DNA of 64,000 bases from Candidatus Dormiibacterota bacterium (GCA_963768105.1 CAVYGR010000003.1:331848-395847); one strand, 5' to 3'; positions 3,399 to 62,390 are shown, numbered from the stretch's first letter. Notes: generated from the sequence alone by a model not told the origin. A program made the numbers and translations.

Positions 3399-4850
3399 TC
3401 AGCTCGCGGCGCGTGCGGACCGCCGTTGGTGCCGCCGAGTGTTCGACCACGCCGCGTCGATGGCCTTGATCTCGCCGCTGAGCGACGCTGCCGTAGCCAC
3501 ATAACTGGAGCGCACGTAGCGCTCATGATTGACCTCCAACCGCTGCGGCTCGTACACGTAGTTGACCATCACCCCATAGGACTGCCCGCCCCTCGGTGAG
3601 AGATCCGCGTCGGGGTTGACGCGCTCGAGCCGCGCGCCATTGGAGAGATGGAAGTGGCCAACGCTGTCGGCGATGTGGCCACGGACCTTGACATGCAACA
3701 GGTCGGCGAGTGCCAAGCGCCCCGCCAGCCGAGCAACCGCTGGATCGTGTGGTCCGGGCGCTGTCAGCAGCCGAGACAGCGACTCCAGCTCGTCGCCTGA
3801 CTTCGCGAGGCGACGCAGCTCGTCATGATGGCCCGCGGTGAGCGCGCGCAGGCGCTCGTCGGTGAAGGCGTCATCGTCGGCATGATTCGCGACGGCCTTG
3901 GCCAGGCTGGGGACGGGCGACAGGGTCGCAAACGTGCGCAGCGCCGGCAGCTCCGCGGAGAGTTCGCGAACCACCTGTTTGATCAGGAAGTTCCCAAACG
4001 AGATGCCGCGCAGGCCGGGTTGGCAGTCGCTGATCGAATAGAAGACGGCGGTGTGAGCGTCCCGGGCTTCGGCAATGGGTCGCTGCACGCCGATCAGCGG
4101 AGCGATCGCGGTTGGCAGCTCGCGGGTGAGGGCGATCTCCACGAAGATCAGCGGTTCCCCGGGCAGCAACGGGTGAAAGAACGCGAAGCACCGCCGGTCG
4201 GCGGCGAGCCGCAGACGCAGGTCGTCCCATCCGTGGATCTCGTGCACCGCCTCGTACGCGATCAGCCGTTCCAGCGTCGCGGCAGGCGTGCTCCAGCTGA
4301 TCTGCTCGAGACGCAGGAAGCCACCGTTGAACCAGGACGACAGCAGGTGGCGCAGGTCGGCATCTACGCCGCGGAGGTGCGGACGTGCTGGGAGCAGCTC
4401 GAGCAGCCGGGCGCGCAACTTGACCAGCGCCGCCGCACCGCCGGCGACCATGTTGAGTCGTCGGAACAGCTCTTGGCGCGGCGCCTCCGTAGCCTCGGCA
4501 AGTGAGATGACGGCGTCATCGCTGGGATCCGCCTGCCACCGTGCCACTGCCGCCGCGACCGCTTCGGACGGCGGTGAGAACGAGGCGGCGAGTACCTCCA
4601 GGAATGCGGCGTCGTCGGCGCCGCTCATGCGCTCGAGGGCACGAACCACCTCGGTCGCCAATGCCAGTCCGGACGCCTCACCGCGCCGAGCGATCAGGCG
4701 CTGGCATGTTGCAGCGAGGTTCGCCGTGCTGTTGGTGCGCCCGTTGCCATGTCCGAGCATGGCCCTGCCCCGCTCCGCAACCAGGGTGACATGCTCGAGC
4801 CACGACCGTGGTGTCATCGCGAGCAAGTATCGGTCACTTTGGGGGCTCAT
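3399..4850 (-). CDS. malonyl-CoA decarboxylase
   Basis: 483-aa ORF with MCD-family blocks FFHPLLPGEPLIFVEIALT, YSISDCQPGLRGISFGNFLIKQVV and TLSPVP. Confidence 0.85.
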   Translation of the reverse strand: MSPQSDRYLLAMTPRSWLEHVTLVAERGRAMLGHGNGRTNSTANLAATCQRLIARRGEASGLALATEVVRALERMSGADDAAFLEVLAASFSPPSEAVAAAVARWQADPSDDAVISLAEATEAPRQELFRRLNMVAGGAAALVKLRARLLELLPARPHLRGVDADLRHLLSSWFNGGFLRLEQISWSTPAATLERLIAYEAVHEIHGWDDLRLRLAADRRCFAFFHPLLPGEPLIFVEIALTRELPTAIAPLIGVQRPIAEARDAHTAVFYSISDCQPGLRGISFGNFLIKQVVRELSAELPALRTFATLSPVPSLAKAVANHADDDAFTDERLRALTAGHHDELRRLAKSGDELESLSRLLTAPGPHDPAVARLAGRLALADLLHVKVRGHIADSVGHFHLSNGARLERVNPDADLSPRGGQSYGVMVNYVYEPQRLEVNHERYVRSSYVATAASLSGEIKAIDAAWSNTRRHQRRSARAAS

Positions 4851-5987: not shown

Positions 5988-6178
5988 GCTTGCTACCTCC
6001 TGGTTTGAGTCACCCGAGATTGCCAATAGGGTGGCTATGGTCCTTTATCTCATAATTTGGACTGATTGGCGCATTTTTAAGCAGCTTTGGCTACGCCCGG
6101 TTTAACGGATTTTCCCAACGGCCATGCGGTCGCGGGGAATCGCGTCGATTACCGCTTGCGGTGCTCCCGGCGGGCAGG

Positions 6179-54626: not shown

Positions 54627-54700
54627 CGGGGAGTAGCTCAGATGGTTAGAGTACTGGTCTGGGGGACCAGGGGTCGCAGGTTCGAGTCCTGTCTCCCCGA
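54627..54700 (+). tRNA. tRNA-Pro (anticodon GGG)
   Basis: Hand-folded cloverleaf. Acceptor CGGGGAG/CTCCCCG, D arm GCTC..GAGT, anticodon stem CTGGT/ACCAG with loop CTGGGGG, T arm GCAGG-TTCGAGT-CCTGT, discriminator A. No encoded CCA. Confidence 0.9.
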
Positions 54701-54824
54701 CGGACGCGCAAGTTGATCTCAGTGCAGGGATTTCCAGTGCCATCCATTTGGCTCAATCCTGCGGGGACTAGCCCTCATCTTCGGATTGATGACTTTGCCA
54801 GCAAAACGTATCATACTTTCCAGT

Positions 54825-55823
54825 ATGAGCACCACGATCGATGGACACCTGAAGCCGCTGCGGCAGCGCGCTCCCGCCAGCCCGCCGCCGACCAGCAGGA
54901 GAGTCTCCATCGACCGCTGTGTCGACCTCATGGCGACGCGCTATCAGTGGGCCGACACCACCCGAGTCAACGCGCGCGACTACCTCGCCCGTGGTCGTTT
55001 CCTCGCCTTCTGCAATGCCCGGGGCATCGAGACCGTCGACCAGCTCAGCAATGAGGCGGTGCTCGACTTCATCGGTGATGTCCGCGACCGCGTGGGTGTC
55101 AGCCGCAACACTTTGCGCCGCTACCGCAACTACCTCCGGCGGCTTGCTGACTTCTGTGCCACCACGCCTGGGTTCGAGAATCCCTACTTCACCTCCAGCG
55201 CCGTGCCGAATGCTCCGAAGGAACCGCGGCGAAGGCGCTCCGACGCGCTGACCCACAGCGAAGAGCAGGCCCTGGTCGCCGCCCTCGTCGGACATCGCCG
55301 TGACAGTCTGATCGTCCGCGTGCTGTTGGCATGCGGCCTGCGCGTGAGCGAGCTCTGCGCGCTCTGCGTGGATGACGTGAAACTCACGGCTCGGCCGCCG
55401 CGCATACTCGTGTCCAAGGGACACCGTGACATGACCAAGAGTGGCGTCGATCGCCAGGTGACCTTCCGACAGCCCTACGCTCGGGAACTGGTCCGTGACC
55501 TCGAAGCGTGGATCGACCGACACCGGCCGGCGTCGCTCCACCCCGATCTCTTTATCTCGGAACGGAGTTCTTCAGGCGAACCAATCACCGTGACCGCGGT
55601 CCAGCAGATGCTGCAGCGAGCTTCGCTGCGTGCCGGACTTCGACCCATCCATCCACATCTCCTTCGGCGCACGTGGGCGACGCGCCTCGCCGACGCCGGC
55701 GCCACGGTAACGGACCTCATGCAGCAGGCTGGGTGGAGCAGCATCGAGATGGTGACCGTTTACTACGCCGGGTCTGAGGAGCGCGCGATCGAGCGGGTCG
55801 CGGGTCTGCGCGTCGAAGGCTGA
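54825..55823 (+). CDS. int: tyrosine-type site-specific integrase
   Basis: C-terminal catalytic region LACGLRVSEL...HPHLLRRTWATRL...GWSSIEMVTVYY (R..HxxR..Y). Start could be 54786, 54789 or 54825. Confidence 0.9.
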   Translation: MSTTIDGHLKPLRQRAPASPPPTSRRVSIDRCVDLMATRYQWADTTRVNARDYLARGRFLAFCNARGIETVDQLSNEAVLDFIGDVRDRVGVSRNTLRRYRNYLRRLADFCATTPGFENPYFTSSAVPNAPKEPRRRRSDALTHSEEQALVAALVGHRRDSLIVRVLLACGLRVSELCALCVDDVKLTARPPRILVSKGHRDMTKSGVDRQVTFRQPYARELVRDLEAWIDRHRPASLHPDLFISERSSSGEPITVTAVQQMLQRASLRAGLRPIHPHLLRRTWATRLADAGATVTDLMQQAGWSSIEMVTVYYAGSEERAIERVAGLRVEG

Positions 55824-56165: not shown

Positions 56166-56189
56166 GTGCTTACGCAGCGCTTACACTTC
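56166..56189. promoter_or_regulatory. copy 1 of a conserved 24-nt element motif (GTGCTTACGCAGCGCTTACACTTC)
   Basis: 18/24 identical to copy 2. Contains GCTTAC twice, 11 nt apart. Upstream of the XRE gene. Confidence 0.45.
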
Positions 56190-56781: not shown

Positions 56782-57143
56782 GGGGTGAGTTCTCCGGGGG
56801 CGAGCGACGCCTCATACTCCAGCTGGGCTGCTTCGAGCATGGCGTCCACGGTTGGCGTGATGACGCCAGCAGTCGTTCTGCTCTCGACCATCTTGCGCAC
56901 GTCGGCCGCCTTGGCCTGACCCACATCGTCCGCGGCGCGCCGGATCAACGCATGTGCCGCGTGCTCGGAGACGCCCATGTCACGCAGCCACCCCTCGAGG
57001 CGACGACCCTCTCGCTCAACGAACTGGTGGTCGATCTCCAATGTCGCATCCACCCAGGTCGCGTCCTGAGGAAAATCAGGTACGCCGAGCATCTCGAGCA
57101 GGGCTCGTTGCGCGTCGGTCGCGCGGCGCTTCGAGGTTGGCAT
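56778..57143 (-). CDS. hypothetical element protein
   Basis: Protein-like sequence from ATG 57143 (or 57176): MPTSKRRATDAQRALLEMLGVPDFPQDATWVDATLEIDHQFVERE... It overlaps the relaxase 3' tail. Confidence 0.45.
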   Translation of the reverse strand: MPTSKRRATDAQRALLEMLGVPDFPQDATWVDATLEIDHQFVEREGRRLEGWLRDMGVSEHAAHALIRRAADDVGQAKAADVRKMVESRTTAGVITPTVDAMLEAAQLEYEASLAPGELTP

Positions 57144-59721
57144 GGCCGGCCGTACGGTCACGGTCTGCCTGCTCATATCGATCGGGATAGTCGAGCGCCG
57201 ACTCCTTCTCCTCGCTGCGGCTCCAGGAGTGCACGGTTCGTTCCTCTGCGCTTGGAGTGGGCTCCTTCCAGTGCATGATCCCGAGCGGGTCTCGCTCACG
57301 TGGCGTCGCCACCTCGTAGTGATGCGTGGCGAGGGTGGCCCTCGACATCGCCGTATACGTCCACTCGCGGCTGGCGCCATCCGAACCCACCACCATCGCG
57401 ATGTCCGCGGTCATGCCCTGGGCCTTATGGACGGTGAGGGCGTAGCCGCGGTCGAGAGCGTCGTATTGCCTGGTATCGATGGTCACCTGACCGTGGTCCG
57501 GACGCTCGAGGGTGAGCGTGCCCCGTTCAGGATCGACGCTGGTGACGACGCCACGGGTGCCGTTGCGTACCCCGGCGTGACGATCGTTGGTCAGGCAGAC
57601 GATCCGGTCGCCCGCCTGATAGTCCTTGTCTCTCACGCTCAGCGCCGGTCCGTGCACGCGTCCGTCCTCCACGGCCCTGGCACGGGCGAGCTCGTTGAGA
57701 GTCTCCACCTCGTCCCGGCGGCGGGCGAGCATGATCGCGTCGAGGCCGCTGGCGCTCAGAGCGCTGTGATGCGCGACCACCTCCGCCCGACGCTCCGGTG
57801 CCGACGGTGCAATGTGGACCCGGTCGTGTCGCATGTACTCGCGGTACGCCGCGCGCGCTTCGGCGTCGCGCAGGAGTGCGAGCGTCGCCCGTTCCCACGG
57901 ATCGACCTGGCGGATGTTCTCGGTGAGCTCGACCTTGCCGATGCGCTCGCCAAGGGTGCGCAATGGCGCCCCGGCCTCAATGGGCTGCAGCTGTTTGGGG
58001 TCGCCGACCAGCACCAGCTTGGCGTCGTCCCGCGCCGAGAGCGAGACCAGCTCGGCGAGCTGGCGGTCGCCGAGCATCCCGGCCTCGTCCACGACGAGCA
58101 CACCCCCAAAGGGGAGGTGGTCCATCTGCAGTTCGTTGAGCATCCCCGCCACCGTCCACGACGGGATGGCCGATCCCTCCTCGAGCCCCTGGGCCGCCTT
58201 GCCGGCCAGCGCACAGCCGACCACCTGAATGCCGCTCGCCTGCAGGGCTTCGCGGCACGCCTCCAGCGCATACGTCTTGCCGACCCCCGCCGCGCCCTCG
58301 ATGACCACGACGCCGGCGGACGTGCGGCAGACGGCATCGACCATCGTCCGCTGATCGCGGGTCAGCGTCGGCCGCGATGCAACGGCCGCCGCGACGTGCG
58401 CATCGCTCGCCACACCGACGTCGGCGTGTGCCCGCTCCTGGGCGGTGCTGAGCATCCGCTCCTCGAGGAGGAGCATCTCCGGCGTGGTGTACCGGAGGTC
58501 GCGGCCGGACTCGATCCAACGCGTGATCGTGTCGCCCTCCACCTCGCCGTCGTGCGCGGTGGGGAGCAGCGCCACCACCGCGTCGCGGTCGGCCAGGATG
58601 GCGTCGGCCGTCGCCTCGATGCGACTCCGGCTCATGCCCAGGGGTGCGTGCGCGGCGATGCCGCGGATCAGGTCGCGGCGCGTGAAGGTTGCCGATTGGG
58701 CGGTGAGTCCGTGGACACCGAGGATCTCGATGGGATCGCGCACGTCGAGCTGGCGCGGCAGCAGAGCATCGGGTTCGCGGTGCATCAGGTCGCGCATGCT
58801 CGCGCTGTCGAGTCCGACGCTGCCCGCCCGCTCACGCCATCGTGCGAAGAGATCCTCGGTGGCAGCGATCTCGTGCTTGCTCTCCCGGGTGTCGAGCGTG
58901 GCCACCTCCCGGCCGCTGGCCGACTCGATGGCCATCGCCCTCGCCGCGGCGTCGATCTGCTGGGACCGCCGCGAGAACTCGCGGCGCTGCGCCTCCGTGA
59001 TCCCGACGATGGCGAAGTACCCCTTGCCGTCGACCACGGTCGAGATCCCCAGTTCTCGCACGAGGCGGTCGCGCCACTCCGCCTGTGCGATCGCGCCGGC
59101 CGCGGCAGCGTGGCGGTACACGGGCTCGCTGTACAGCTGCCCCCAGGTGCCGTCGGGCCGCTGCGCCCAGTTGGGCACCGTCAGGTGGGTGTGCAGCTGT
59201 GGATCGACCGTGACAGTGCCGGTGGCCGGATCGGTCACGGGACGCGCGGTGCGGTGCACGAACTCGGCCATCACCAGGCGGGCGCGCACCGGTTCCGCAC
59301 GCTTGCTCTCGGGGTTGAACTGCCGCGCCCAGCCGGCGTGCGCCTGGAGGTACTCGGCGGCAGCGCGCACGCCCTCGTCGTGGATGCGCAGGATGGTCGC
59401 GCGAGTGTGGTCGTCGCCGAGCGCGTAGAGGATGCTCACGTCCTTGGGTGCGGACACGGCGACGTCGAACGCGACCACGTGCTGGCGCGACCAGTGGCGT
59501 CCCAGATCCTCCGCGGTGGTCGGGTGCTTGCCGCTCAGGACCGCGGCGAAGTCGGTGTCGGTGACCTCGCCGCGCAGCCCAAGCGCCTCCGCCCCGAGGC
59601 CCCGCCAGCGGCCCGGCGACTCGCCGCGGGCGGTGAAGTACTCGAGCTGCTGATCGGCCACGGCCTCGCGCAGGTAGCGAACCGCCTGCTCGACGCTGGT
59701 GAGTTTGCCGATGGAGATCAC
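57076..59721 (-). CDS. MobF-family relaxase fused to a RecD-like helicase (TraA/TrwC type)
   Basis: GTG at 59721 with GGAGGC SD. N-terminal relaxase region (YLREAVADQQLEYF, FDVAVSAPKDVS, DPQLHTHLTVPN). C-terminal helicase (EGAAGVGKTY, VVDEAGML, VGDPKQLQP, HKAQG). Confidence 0.9.
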   Translation of the reverse strand: MISIGKLTSVEQAVRYLREAVADQQLEYFTARGESPGRWRGLGAEALGLRGEVTDTDFAAVLSGKHPTTAEDLGRHWSRQHVVAFDVAVSAPKDVSILYALGDDHTRATILRIHDEGVRAAAEYLQAHAGWARQFNPESKRAEPVRARLVMAEFVHRTARPVTDPATGTVTVDPQLHTHLTVPNWAQRPDGTWGQLYSEPVYRHAAAAGAIAQAEWRDRLVRELGISTVVDGKGYFAIVGITEAQRREFSRRSQQIDAAARAMAIESASGREVATLDTRESKHEIAATEDLFARWRERAGSVGLDSASMRDLMHREPDALLPRQLDVRDPIEILGVHGLTAQSATFTRRDLIRGIAAHAPLGMSRSRIEATADAILADRDAVVALLPTAHDGEVEGDTITRWIESGRDLRYTTPEMLLLEERMLSTAQERAHADVGVASDAHVAAAVASRPTLTRDQRTMVDAVCRTSAGVVVIEGAAGVGKTYALEACREALQASGIQVVGCALAGKAAQGLEEGSAIPSWTVAGMLNELQMDHLPFGGVLVVDEAGMLGDRQLAELVSLSARDDAKLVLVGDPKQLQPIEAGAPLRTLGERIGKVELTENIRQVDPWERATLALLRDAEARAAYREYMRHDRVHIAPSAPERRAEVVAHHSALSASGLDAIMLARRRDEVETLNELARARAVEDGRVHGPALSVRDKDYQAGDRIVCLTNDRHAGVRNGTRGVVTSVDPERGTLTLERPDHGQVTIDTRQYDALDRGYALTVHKAQGMTADIAMVVGSDGASREWTYTAMSRATLATHHYEVATPRERDPLGIMHWKEPTPSAEERTVHSWSRSEEKESALDYPDRYEQADRDRTAGHANLEAPRDRRATSPARDARRT

Positions 59722-59742: not shown

Positions 59743-59766
59743 GCGCTCACAGATCGCTTACACTTT
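59743..59766. promoter_or_regulatory. copy 2 of the conserved 24-nt element motif (GCGCTCACAGATCGCTTACACTTT)
   Basis: 21/24 identical to copy 3. Lies 21 nt upstream of the relaxase GTG, in the divergent intergenic region. Confidence 0.5.
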
Positions 59767-59899
59767 GGGTCGAAAACGGGGTCAAAACCGCAGGTGAAAG
59801 TGTGTGTGAGATATAGGCGTGGGGCGGTGCTGCAGGGATGCGGAGGGCGGAGCTGATGGGAGTGTCGGGTGACGGTGAAGCTGAGGAGTTGAGGTGGTG

Positions 59900-60691
59900 A
59901 TGGCGGTGGAGATGGTGATGCCGGCGACGCTGCAGGGAGTGGCGGGGCTGGAGCGGGACTGGGAGGGCCCGGGTCCCCGCTTCGTCCAGATCACCGCGCG
60001 CTTCCACAACCGCTGTGGCGGCTGCGGCGGTGACGCGCCGGTCGGCACCCGCATCACCTACGACCGGCTCGAGCGCCATCCGTACCACCCGGGATGCGCG
60101 TGGGTTGCGATCGAGCAGCCGCCCTGGCTGATCCCCGTCCTCGCCGGCGATGCGCCGGCCCCCGGGCAGGTGATCGCGCATCCCAGCTACGGCTGGCTCG
60201 TGTGCGTGCGTGTGGCGGGGCGGACGTGGGCGGACAACGGCGTGAGCGCTGGGAGTGTCGTCGGCGTGGCCGCTCGGCGTGCGCTCCCCGAGGAGATCGA
60301 GCTGGCGCAATGGCGCGCGTACGCTGGCATGGGCGATGAGGCCGAGTGGTCCTGGCTGCAGCCCGAGCACGTGGGCGACATCGCGGAGTCCGTCGCCGAG
60401 TTCACCGGCTGGCCGATCACGCGCATCGCGCGCGAGCCCGCACAGTTCGTCGCGCCTCACCCCGGCGGGCTGTTGGTATTCGGCGAGGTCACCCCGCTCG
60501 ATGAGACCGAGCGCTGGATCGCCGCGGATCCCGAGGAGCGCTCGCTGTATCAGCGCGGCTATCGCTGGTGCCGCTGCTACTCGGTGCAGTGCCTTGCCGG
60601 CGAGGAGGGCCACGTCCACCTCGGCTCGGTCATTCCCGTGACACGCACCCAGTTCGACGCGGCCAACCAGCGGGGCTGGTCGCTGCACTAA
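59900..60691 (+). CDS. hypothetical Cys-rich protein, divergent from the relaxase
   Basis: ORF 59894-60691. An ATG at 59900 follows GAGGAG/GAGGTGG. RFHNRCGGCGG...HPYHPGCAW suggests a zinc site. No family recognised. Confidence 0.55.
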   Translation: MAVEMVMPATLQGVAGLERDWEGPGPRFVQITARFHNRCGGCGGDAPVGTRITYDRLERHPYHPGCAWVAIEQPPWLIPVLAGDAPAPGQVIAHPSYGWLVCVRVAGRTWADNGVSAGSVVGVAARRALPEEIELAQWRAYAGMGDEAEWSWLQPEHVGDIAESVAEFTGWPITRIAREPAQFVAPHPGGLLVFGEVTPLDETERWIAADPEERSLYQRGYRWCRCYSVQCLAGEEGHVHLGSVIPVTRTQFDAANQRGWSLH

Positions 60692-60746
60692 CCGCCCGTG
60701 TGTCCCGGGTGGGATGCGTCGTCAGGGGCGCGGCGTGTGCTGACGT

Positions 60747-61066
60747 CGCGGAGTCCGCGACGCTCGCGGGAAGCGCGAGCTCCGCGACAGTGCATCAATG
60801 CGCGGATCTCGCGAGGTACGCAAGATGCGCGATGTAGGCGATGGCAGCGGCACGCGCGAGACACGCGAGATGCGCGAGACGCGCGAGACATGCGTGATTG
60901 GCGGTGTCCGCAAGATCTGCTGAACGCGCGCGGTCCGCGAACCACGCGACACTCGCGAACGATGCGACATTCGCGAACGACGCGAGATGCGCGGAGTTCG
61001 CACCGTTGAGTCGATGCGCGCGACGAGCACCCGGCGCGGAACACGCGGGACGGGCTGCAGGCGCGA
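60747..61066. repeat. about 36 phase-locked tandem 9-bp repeats (nnCGCGAnn); candidate centromere/iterons
   Basis: Hand count: 21 of 36 consecutive 9-nt registers carry exact CGCG[A/G], and 9 more are within one mismatch. Example: cgcgcgaga cacgcgaga tgcgcgaga cgcgcgaga catgcgtga (60853-60897). Confidence 0.85.
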
Positions 61067-61157
61067 CATCAGCAGTGTGCGAACGATGCCCTCGACGCGC
61101 ACTTCGGCGATCCGGCGACCCATGTCCGGCCAGCGCGCAGCCGCGCGGCAGCGCGGG

Positions 61158-61505
61158 TCAGATCGTGTGGTCTGTGGGGTCCTGGGGCTTGGTGCCCAGC
61201 GCCCCGACGGGACGTCGGAGGCTCGCCTTGCCGGCGCGTGCCGGGAATGGCTGCCCGCGCTCGTGCTCCAGGTCATCGACCGCCGCAGCCAGCGCCTTGG
61301 TCGCGAGAGCGGTCAACGTCAGCCCCGGAGTCCAGTACACGGCGTTGCGGGCGCGTTCGAGTACCTCGGGGTCGAGCGACACGCCGACCGTGATCGCCCG
61401 CGCGGAACGCGGCACTTCCTGGTGCGCCGCCGGCCCTGTGGAGGAAGGTGGGAACACCGCAGCGAGGGGGTCGTCCCCCAGCGTGCTGCTACGCCGCGGG
61501 CGCAT
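61158..61505 (-). CDS. small partition-associated DNA-binding protein (RHH/ParG-like by resemblance)
   Basis: 115 aa, immediately downstream of and overlapping parA. ITVGVSLDPEVLERARNAVYWTPGLTLTALATKALAAAVDDLEHERGQPFP resembles recalled actinobacterial ParA-partner proteins. Confidence 0.55.
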   Translation of the reverse strand: MRPRRSSTLGDDPLAAVFPPSSTGPAAHQEVPRSARAITVGVSLDPEVLERARNAVYWTPGLTLTALATKALAAAVDDLEHERGQPFPARAGKASLRRPVGALGTKPQDPTDHTI

Positions 61506-62262
61506 GGCGCACCTCCTGCGCGATCACCTCGCAGGCTAGGCTGCGATAGTCGGCGGCGCCGCTGCAGCGCGGGTCGTACTGGGTGATGGGCTGCCCGAAC
61601 GACGGACACTCTGCGAGGCGCACGTTCTCGCGGATGACCGTGCTGCAGACCAGGTCGCCGAAGCGTCCGCGCAGGCGCTCCACCACCTCGGGACCATGCC
61701 GGGTGCGGGCGTCGACCCGGCACGCCACGATGCCGCTGACGCGCAGCCGCGGGTTGACGCGCTCACGGGCGGCCTCGACGCCGCGCAGCAGCTGCACCAG
61801 GCCGGCCATCGCCATGACGTGTGCCTCAACCGGGATGAACAGCTCCTCGACGCTGGCGAGGGCGTTGGCGGTGAGCGCGCCGAGCGCCGGCGGACAGTCG
61901 ACCACCAGGTAGTCCCAGCGGTCGGGGAGGTCGCCGATGAGCTGGGCGAGCCGCCCCTCCCCGGCGCGTATCTCGGCCAGCCTGCGCTCGGCGCCCAGGA
62001 GCCACATCGACGACGGCACGATGTCGAGCCCGAGGGTGCCGGTGTGGTGGACGGCATCGGACAGCCGCGCTCCACCGAGGAGGGCGTCGAGCAGCGTGCG
62101 CGATTCCGTGGGGGCGGCCACCCACGCCGAGGCGGACGCCTGAGGATCGAGGTCGATCAGGAGGACGCGCCGTCCGGTCTCGGCCAGCGCGGCGCTGAGG
62201 CTGACGGCGGTGGTGGTCTTGCCGGAGCCGCCCTTGTGATTGACGGTGGCGATGGTGCGCAT
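61489..62262 (-). CDS. parA: ParA/Soj-type partition ATPase
   Basis: Deviant Walker A NHKGGSGKTT, LLIDLDPQ, VVDCPP. Confidence 0.92.
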   Translation of the reverse strand: MRTIATVNHKGGSGKTTTAVSLSAALAETGRRVLLIDLDPQASASAWVAAPTESRTLLDALLGGARLSDAVHHTGTLGLDIVPSSMWLLGAERRLAEIRAGEGRLAQLIGDLPDRWDYLVVDCPPALGALTANALASVEELFIPVEAHVMAMAGLVQLLRGVEAARERVNPRLRVSGIVACRVDARTRHGPEVVERLRGRFGDLVCSTVIRENVRLAECPSFGQPITQYDPRCSGAADYRSLACEVIAQEVRHAPAA

Positions 62263-62291
62263 GGCGGCGATGCCTCCCAGATCGTCGGCCT

Positions 62292-62350
62292 CGCGAATCC
62301 CGCGAGAGTCGCGAACATCGCGGGATCCGCGGTGTCGCGAGGTTCAGCGA
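62292..62350. repeat. 5-7 copies of the same 9-bp CGCGA repeat upstream of parA (candidate operator)
   Basis: CGCGA at 62292, 62301 and 62310; CGCGG at 62319 and 62328 (all 9-nt steps); then CGCGA at 62336 and AGCGA at 62346. Confidence 0.7.
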
Positions 62351-62366
62351 CCACGATAGCGTCCGC

Positions 62367-62390
62367 GCGCTCACAGAGCGCTTACATTTC
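62367..62390. promoter_or_regulatory. copy 3 of the conserved 24-nt element motif (GCGCTCACAGAGCGCTTACATTTC)
   Basis: Lies between parA (104 nt away) and the SSB-like gene (36 nt away). Confidence 0.5.

Follow-up and report, generated by a model that had tools for sequence, protein, structure and literature searches.

A long array of unspaced 9-bp CGCG repeats is the probable centromere of a type Ib partition system on an integrated mobile element of Candidatus Dormibacterota

Introduction

Among described partition systems, that of plasmid pCXC100 from Leifsonia xyli subsp. cynodontis comes closest to the locus analysed here. Its centromere consists of nine unspaced 9-bp direct repeats, to which dimers of the ribbon-helix-helix (RHH) protein ParB bind cooperatively, with 18 bp needed per dimer, and hydroxyl-radical footprinting by Huang et al. 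placed these dimers every 9.07 ± 0.08 and 8.96 ± 0.09 bp (PMC3074162). A centromere of contiguous 9-bp repeats bound by an RHH ParB is thus an established design. The ParB of this plasmid (structure 3NO7) also has an extra C-terminal loop, described in the pCXC100 paper as unique to that protein. The small RHH proteins omega (pSM19035) and ParG, which acts at parH (TP228), are both repressors and centromere binders; they use arrays of short contiguous repeats and are autoregulated (PMC5016525). On plasmid R388, an stb operon that encodes the ParA-like StbB lies beside oriT and trwABC, with a site, stbS, of 9-bp direct repeats; here StbA, whose gene precedes stbB, is a helix-turn-helix (HTH) protein, the repeats form two sets of five with 2-bp spacers (an 11-bp period), and StbB is dispensable for stability (bioRxiv 10.1101/2022.04.29.490116).

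We analysed a 64,000-nucleotide stretch of DNA from a Candidatus Dormibacterota bacterium (hereafter the window), which carries a long array of 9-bp repeats next to par genes. The locus displays the hallmarks of a type Ib system, with a small ParA that has no HTH domain, an RHH-like gene directly downstream and short-repeat arrays adjoining the operon. With pCXC100 it shares this layout of a small RHH gene after a Walker-type ParA, a DNA-binding domain that is homologous at the profile level, C-terminal loop included, and unspaced 9-bp direct repeats, the 18-bp contacts of pCXC100 ParB having a counterpart in an 18-bp super-period here. In the prediction for the DNA-binding protein here, as in pCXC100 ParB, a disordered N-terminal tail is followed by the RHH core and then by an additional C-terminal loop that closes with GRP. 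The two systems differ in that pCXC100 has a single centromere of nine repeats in ~90 bp upstream of parA, with the consensus AGNTGGAAA, whereas ~39 repeats with the consensus CGCG-RnRYn occupy ~350 bp downstream of parB here, and six more lie upstream. Moreover, the ParA of pCXC100 has 317 residues compared with 257, pairwise sequence similarity between the two DNA-binding proteins is undetectable, and pCXC100 is an actinobacterial plasmid, whereas the present locus belongs to an integrative element of Dormibacterota.

A sequence-only reading of this DNA had taken the 9-bp unit for an unrecognised par-site design and perhaps a new centromere type. This claim lacks support, nine unspaced 9-bp repeats having been footprinted as the centromere of pCXC100 (PMC3074162); the principle is already known, and the locus reveals no new one. 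Our combined findings make it probable that the array serves as the chief partition site (centromere) for a type Ib ParA/ParB system, which forms part of a TrwC-relaxase mobile element integrated at a tRNA-Pro gene.

Results

The par locus lies on an integrated mobile element

The left part of the element contains the following features.

54627..55823, + strand: element boundary (ARAGORN tRNA, Pfam integrase)
54627-54701, + strand: tRNA-Pro(GGG) (ARAGORN)
54786-55823, + strand: tyrosine integrase (Pfam Phage_integrase, 3.9e-29)
57076..59721, − strand: TrwC/MobF-type relaxase-helicase (Pfam TrwC, 2.1e-70, and AAA_30; NCBIfam MobF and TraA_Ti)
59894..60691, + strand: 265-aa convergent ORF whose stop borders the array (high GC3, called in related contigs)

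The housekeeping gene der/engA, recognised by its Pfam EngA domains, lies directly to the left of the element boundary. This arrangement, together with the relaxase, the integrase and the tRNA-Pro gene, places the par locus on a mobile element integrated at tRNA-Pro. The element extends past the right end of the window. In related contigs the gene order is a ParB_N/HTH protein, SSB, ArdC, RadC, ParA, a 115-aa protein, a gap, an ORF of ~265 aa, TrwC and the integrase. The 265-aa ORF had no match in Pfam or NCBIfam; it is conserved, has cysteine-rich motifs (CGGCGG...HPGC) and in every case separates the array from the relaxase operon.

The closest genomes are metagenome-assembled genomes (MAGs) of Candidatus Dormibacterota, some of which contain two or three related copies of the element. 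Multiple copies occur in palsa_871 (loci L001, L004 and L011), palsa_863 (L002 and L009) and palsa_834 (L008 and L010). The RHH proteins of these copies are 80-97% identical, and the CGCG core is common to all of them, which raises the question of whether there is centromere-based incompatibility between copies or whether strains were mixed during binning.

A phase-locked 9-bp array fills the gap between convergent genes

60729..61079, no strand assigned: main array, 39 contiguous 9-bp registers; proposed centromere
61158..61505, − strand: predicted 115-aa ParB-like centromere-binding protein (profile homology to 3NO7, AlphaFold model)

The convergent stop codons of the 265-aa ORF (59894-60691, + strand) and the gene for the 115-aa protein (61158-61505, − strand) are separated by a gap of 466 bp, which the array fills, just as the sequence-only reading had described. 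A CGCG core recurs every 9 bp over ~350 bp, in unspaced units with a period of exactly 9. Position matrices gave a + strand consensus of CGCG-R-n-R-Y-n, approximately CGCGAGACA; read on the strand of the par genes, the unit is T-c-T-CGCG-c-a. Forward orientation scored better in 30 of the 36 units scored.

The phase-locked CGCG repeats reported earlier were reproduced in a register table starting at 60747. Among 36 registers, CGCG[A/G] is matched exactly in 21, as previously counted by hand, with one mismatch in eight rather than the nine reported, with two mismatches in four and with more in three. The earlier limits of the array, 60747-61066, held for the registers that they enclose but proved slightly too narrow: with the nearly invariant GC as criterion, the array spans 60729-61079, and the central GC is in register in 37 of 39 units. 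The phase is lost after ~61080, in keeping with the decay toward 61110 that had been noted.

Autocorrelation revealed the 9-nt peak that the sequence-only reading had predicted. Over 60747-61066, identity at lags 9, 18 and 27 was 0.50, 0.52 and 0.53, against 0.29 expected from 1000 dinucleotide-preserving shuffles (z = 7.9, 7.9 and 8.5, respectively, that is, z≈8 at each lag). In a sliding 150-nt scan the array was the top lag-9 peak of the 64-kb window (0.567, with a mean of 0.312 and a standard deviation of 0.046). The Rayleigh phase statistic for CGCG occurrences reached 20.4 at period 9, the highest period-9 value in the window, and did not exceed 1.9 at the other periods from 5 to 21. Tandem Repeats Finder detected only the two cleanest blocks of the array and scored period 18 above period 9. 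The main array thus has an 18-bp super-period, which fits the overlapping binding mode of pCXC100. A search of Rfam returned chance-level matches only.

The main array is not coding

Four mechanically predicted ORFs cross the array, none of them with a Pfam match. One, the minus-strand ORF 60722-61276, reads as repeated Ser-Arg-Ile/Val, so the repeats might be thought to encode a protein with a three-residue repeat of this kind. No stop interrupts that frame across the array in the window, nor in 11 of the 14 loci examined, and the internal gaps in the array alignment, mostly of 9, 18, 27, 36, 54 or 63 nt, would also keep a reading frame. However, the openness is automatic because the unit TCG-CGN-NTN cannot make a stop codon, and stops do occur in this frame in L002, L008 and L060, the last of which has an RHH protein identical to that of the window. 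The array of L003, in addition, contains a 1-nt phase shift.

The pattern of identity and substitution also argues against translation. Lag-3 and lag-6 identity in the array fell below the shuffle expectation (z = -2.2 and -3.4), which is the opposite of the coding signal expected in a 68% G+C genome. When the window array was aligned with those of 11 close relatives, the mismatch fractions at unit positions 1 to 9 were 0.085, 0.013, 0.013, 0.087, 0.040, 0.084, 0.114, 0.143 and 0.130. At the central GC, these close relatives had ~10-fold fewer substitutions than in the spacer, with a 9-nt pattern that protects the central GC and no 3-nt pattern. Gene calling in related contigs yielded no gene spanning the array, the only calls there being of 32 aa (L062) and 72 aa (L070). 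The conserved protein-coding gene that the sequence-only reading had named as a challenge to its own proposal was thus sought through gene calls, Pfam matches and codon periodicity, none of which pointed to one. The main array is not coding, and we give almost no credence to a protein repeat as its explanation.

The par operon is preceded by a second, shorter array

61489..62262, − strand: ParA, a 257-aa Soj-like deviant Walker A ATPase (Pfam, NCBIfam and PDB matches)
62287..62341, − strand: short upstream array of six units; proposed operator, possibly a second partition site
62369..62386, − strand: TGTAAGC-N4-TGTGAGC direct repeat; proposed promoter or regulator site of the par operon

The ParA protein has the Walker motif KGGSGKT and does not have the N-terminal HTH domain. 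It matched Pfam AAA_31 (7.9e-45) and also CbiA, had ParA_partition as its top NCBIfam match, and aligned over its full length with ParA/Soj structures in the PDB (5e-52 and 1e-47). It is 31% identical to the ParA of a pCXC100-like Arthrobacter locus. The 3′ end of parA overlaps the start of the 115-aa gene by 17 nt.

Six units of the same kind lie in front of parA, with CGCG at + strand positions 62292, 62301, 62310, 62319, 62328 and 62336 (spacing, listed on the strand of the par genes, of 8, 9, 9, 9 and 9). On the minus strand they read TCGCGACAC CGCGGATCC CGCGATGTT CGCGACTCT CGCGGGATT CGCGAGGCC, followed by the ribosome-binding site and ATG. This upstream array, the second-best period-9 CGCG phase peak in the window, is located between a promoter-like element and the ribosome-binding site and ATG of parA, which is where a type Ib operator is expected; we therefore propose that it is the operator, and consider this likely. 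Which way these units point with respect to the main array is ambiguous: scoring of the spacers did not discriminate between orientations, and the idea that the upstream array is inverted was therefore dropped.

The promoter-like element is a direct repeat, TGTRAGC-N4-TGTRAGC, that has three matches in the window compared with 0.06 expected (56168-56185, 59745-59762 and 62369-62386, all on the − strand). One of these lies just upstream of the relaxase gene and another upstream of parA, where the form TGTAAGC-N4-TGTGAGC is conserved in relatives. A sigma-70 promoter scan returned no match, and the sole terminator-like match in a terminator scan was the palindromic part of the TGTAAGC element. 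It is possible that this repeat is an element-specific promoter or regulator site that controls transfer and partition genes together.

The upstream array also bears on whether the main array could be an iteron-type replication origin of the element, which the sequence-only reading had kept as an alternative. Such an origin would fit the intergenic location of the array on a mobile element and its make-up of tandem direct repeats. Typical iterons, however, are 17-22 bp long and spaced, whereas the units here are contiguous and far shorter, at 9 bp. There is no adjacent AT-rich stretch in the sequence, no replication initiator (Rep) gene was called within 10 kb on either side in the related contigs, and the unit of the array recurs as the operator-like array before parA. 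We consider an iteron origin highly improbable and do not retain it beside the centromere.

The arrays are conserved in related elements and change by whole units

Arrays near homologues of the 115-aa gene, which the sequence-only reading had expected in related elements, were found in all close loci and in more distant syntenic ones, down to 53% protein identity, but not downstream of the gene in one relative, and a simple scan gave no general 9-bp signal around more distant family members. In 11 of 11 close Dormibacterota loci, [CT]CGCG is phase-locked downstream of the 115-aa gene; in L007, for example, 26 of 29 occurrences fall in one phase. The arrays of these close relatives are homologous and differ by whole units; one block of TCGCGYRTS units, for instance, has four copies in the window but nine in L007. 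In most close loci the three strongest period-9 CGCG peaks correspond to the upstream array and to either half of the downstream one. L003 does not follow this pattern, nor does L004, whose contig stops within the array. Overall, the loci form a natural series with 17-29 exact in-phase CGCG cores (28-44 registers where counted), in which whole units have been gained or lost.

Three syntenic elements whose 115-aa homologue is 53% identical (L067, L069 and L070) have 28-29 registers in the downstream gap. The central GC is kept in 27 of 29 units of L069 and in 22-26 of 28 in L067, while the bases that flank the core differ, and the upstream region has five units in 9-bp phase. In these 53%-identity elements, too, the top period-9 CGCG peaks are the two par arrays. 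The upstream array is kept in all close loci, and it retains the 9-bp phase with degenerate cores in L013, L067 and L069. In L067 the insertion of an acetyltransferase gene (4127-4690) has parted the array from the RHH gene, and the array still adjoins the convergent ORF of ~270 aa.

The syntenic locus L013 (4294-4421; 47% identity) has the upstream 9-bp array and no long downstream array, since its convergent genes are only ~90 bp apart. The module can thus do without the long array. When 50 distant family loci were scanned for lag identity, period 9 was not enriched near the gene, and for this reason we do not extend 9-bp arrays to the family as a whole. A distant member from a Nitrospirae MAG (L052, 4230-4300) is directly followed by ~8 contiguous 7-bp GGTCAAC-like repeats, which suggests that the repeat period varies within the family. 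Two other signals at 9/18 bp were set aside as unrelated: a strong one in L027 stems from a collagen-like Gly-X-Y coding repeat, and that in L047 is a near-perfect 18-bp repeat of 5.7 copies (CCTCGCTACCTTGCCTTA) at 6007-6109, 2 kb downstream of a family member.

Such variation could be read as the mark of a non-functional minisatellite produced by replication slippage, or of an array that acts only as a protein roadblock or terminator between convergent genes: the number of units varies among near-identical elements, one relative (L013) is without the large array, and no intrinsic terminator was found between the convergent genes that flank it. Yet the core holds its phase and is conserved in relatives with as little as 53% protein identity, although their spacers diverge, and the same unit is found at the operator position of parA. 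Neutral slippage would not keep a degenerate array with an invariant central dinucleotide. An array of this kind is in our judgement very unlikely.

The 115-aa protein is a probable remote homologue of pCXC100 ParB

The protein encoded next to the array is disordered at its N-terminal tail, where the motif R-x-T-x-G-x-x-P-L is conserved. A strand-helix-helix core is predicted at residues ~36-83, and the tail G-x-P-F-P-x-R...GRP is conserved as well. Searches of PDB, Pfam and NCBIfam with the single sequence gave no match. In a collection clustered at 90% we found 40 homologues, in which the motif NAVYWTPG is invariant, and a profile search of 1.84 billion representatives recovered 1,724 clusters (at 50% identity) with a cut-off of E ≤ 1e-3 and 792 with E ≤ 1e-10. 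Neither Pfam nor NCBIfam has a model for this family. Its members lie beside ParA genes in Dormibacterota, Chlamydiota, Bipolaricaulota, Nitrospirota, the Cardinium plasmid pCher and others.

Profiles of the family pointed above all to one described protein. With 25 sequences, the sole match in the PDB was 3NO7, the RHH domain of pCXC100 ParB (E 0.33); with 70 sequences, 3NO7 was the top match and was covered over the whole domain (E 0.014). We also compared the family with that of pCXC100 ParB, using for the latter a profile built from three Arthrobacter/Pseudarthrobacter plasmid homologues and the visible part of the 3NO7 chain. The three homologues came from querying PLSDB by tblastn with 40 aa of pCXC100 ParB; all matches were Arthrobacter or Pseudarthrobacter plasmids (51-53% identity), and none was from Leifsonia. 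The alignments with hhalign had probabilities of 93.7% (E 1.8e-7) and 95.2% (E 2.7e-8) and matched 66-69 columns, comprising the strand, both helices and the extra C-terminal loop through GRP.

The AlphaFold model of the monomer has helices at 46-58 and 64-83, with pLDDT >90, an extended segment before them and disordered ends. Comparing this model with the PDB by Foldseek gave nothing significant, the best match being SegB, an RHH protein that binds centromeres (E 5.4); the strand of an RHH protein forms in the dimer only, which bears on a search with a monomer. From the profiles, rather than from structure, we conclude that the 115-aa protein is probably a remote homologue of pCXC100 ParB, and we infer an RHH fold for it. 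The label RHH-like given to the gene in the sequence-only reading is in this way borne out by the hhalign match to the RHH domain of pCXC100 ParB, and the profile searches that had been proposed there for both proteins identified a Soj-like ParA and 3NO7 as the best match.

As a positive control, the pCXC100-like par locus of plasmid pACHL01 proved to have a 9/18-bp phased array just upstream of parA. The same plasmid locus (L063, 2170-2260) contains a perfect run of CAGCCT hexamers between parA and the pCXC100-like parB, which probably codes for a Gln-Pro repeat in a ParB N-terminus that is longer than annotated.

Partition compared with a role in transfer

The main rival to the centromere reading is that the module of ParA, RHH protein and array serves conjugative transfer instead of, or besides, vertical segregation, and positions the excised element or its relaxosome. 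VirC1/VirC2, which act with overdrive on Ti plasmids, provide a precedent for such a role. The location of the array would suit it, ~1 kb from the start of the TrwC-type relaxase gene and between the par genes and the relaxase operon, and TGTRAGC-N4-TGTRAGC precedes both parA and the relaxase gene. ParA, the RHH gene, the array, the 265-aa ORF and TrwC stay syntenic in relatives, and R388, where the stb operon and a site of 9-bp repeats lie beside oriT/trwABC, sets a second precedent (bioRxiv 10.1101/2022.04.29.490116). R388 indeed resembles the present locus in combining a TrwC relaxase, a ParA-like ATPase and 9-bp direct repeats near transfer genes on a mobile element.

R388 differs in several respects, however: StbA belongs to the HTH proteins, spacers of 2 bp give its repeats a period of 11 bp, and stbA comes before stbB. 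In the window, the repeats follow one another without spacers, the DNA-binding protein is of RHH-like type and the gene order is the reverse. The ATPase matches Soj/ParA over its full length but VirC1 only in the first 50 residues. VirC2 is absent among the PDB matches of the 115-aa family profile searches, and the DNA-binding protein has its nearest characterised homologue in a bona fide partition protein. We thus regard a role in transfer as unlikely, and partition as the better account of the module.

Other partition systems share single traits with the locus. The par2 system of plasmid pB171 has repeats of 6 bp, in ~17 and 18 copies. As in par2, arrays flank parAB here, one upstream at the promoter and one downstream of parB (parC1-parA-parB-parC2 in pB171, an order taken from constructs, PMC4270457), although the two arrays are very unequal in the window, with 6 and ~39 units. 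Omega and ParG are likewise small RHH proteins of type Ib systems that act on arrays of short repeats; neither system has a 9-bp period, however, omega using 7-bp heptads in mixed orientation and ParG repeats with AT-rich spacers. The profile searches of the PDB with the 115-aa family did not recover omega or ParG.

Discussion

Our combined findings lend good support to the suggestion of the sequence-only reading that the array is a centromere, through the Soj-like ParA, the RHH homologue of pCXC100 ParB, the upstream array and the conservation of the arrays in syntenic relatives. The analysis shows directly that the arrays are periodic, how they are conserved and evolve, and which proteins are encoded beside them, while binding of the array, its cooperativity, stimulation of the ATPase and partition itself are proposed by homology with described systems. 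By homology to pCXC100 ParB, dimers of the 115-aa protein would bind successive 9-bp units cooperatively, each centred on a CGCG core and overlapping its neighbours as in pCXC100, and would coat ~350 bp as one continuous nucleoprotein filament. The conserved disordered N-terminal tails, with their R-x-T-x-G-x-x-P-L motif, may then stimulate the ATPase of nucleoid-bound Soj-like ParA, such that copies of the excised circular element would be positioned and separated at cell division. As the element is integrated here, a partition function would be relevant only to its excised form. The six-unit upstream array would presumably be bound by the same 115-aa protein, making the par operon autoregulated, and may double as a second, weaker partition site, like parC1 beside parC2 in pB171 par2.

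What is unusual about this locus is the size and placement of its main site, which has ~39 units over 350 bp where pCXC100 has nine over 90 bp, and which lies downstream of parB, paired with a short operator-like array upstream. Also new are the core sequence CGCG, the location on an integrative element that encodes a relaxase and belongs to an uncultured phylum, and the link that profile comparisons suggest between a large unannotated protein family and pCXC100 ParB. A more far-reaching reading, which we think improbable when its parts are taken jointly, is that the array carries an RHH filament ~4x as long as that of any characterised type Ib centromere, that it links segregation of the excised circle with control over the place and time at which the transfer machinery gains access to the element, as StbA/StbB do on R388, and that the NAVYWTPG family, with its ~1,700 clusters in many phyla, is a major unrecognised class of centromere-binding proteins.

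If the centromere reading is confirmed, the pCXC100 mode of overlapping RHH dimers on unspaced 9-bp repeats would extend to integrative elements of Dormibacterota, an uncultured soil phylum. It would also provide a functional lead for a family of hypothetical proteins of ~100 aa that comprises 1,724 clusters and has no Pfam model. The natural series of arrays would then be a convenient system in which to relate centromere length to the assembly of the partition complex, and to study incompatibility between related elements that reside in the same cell.
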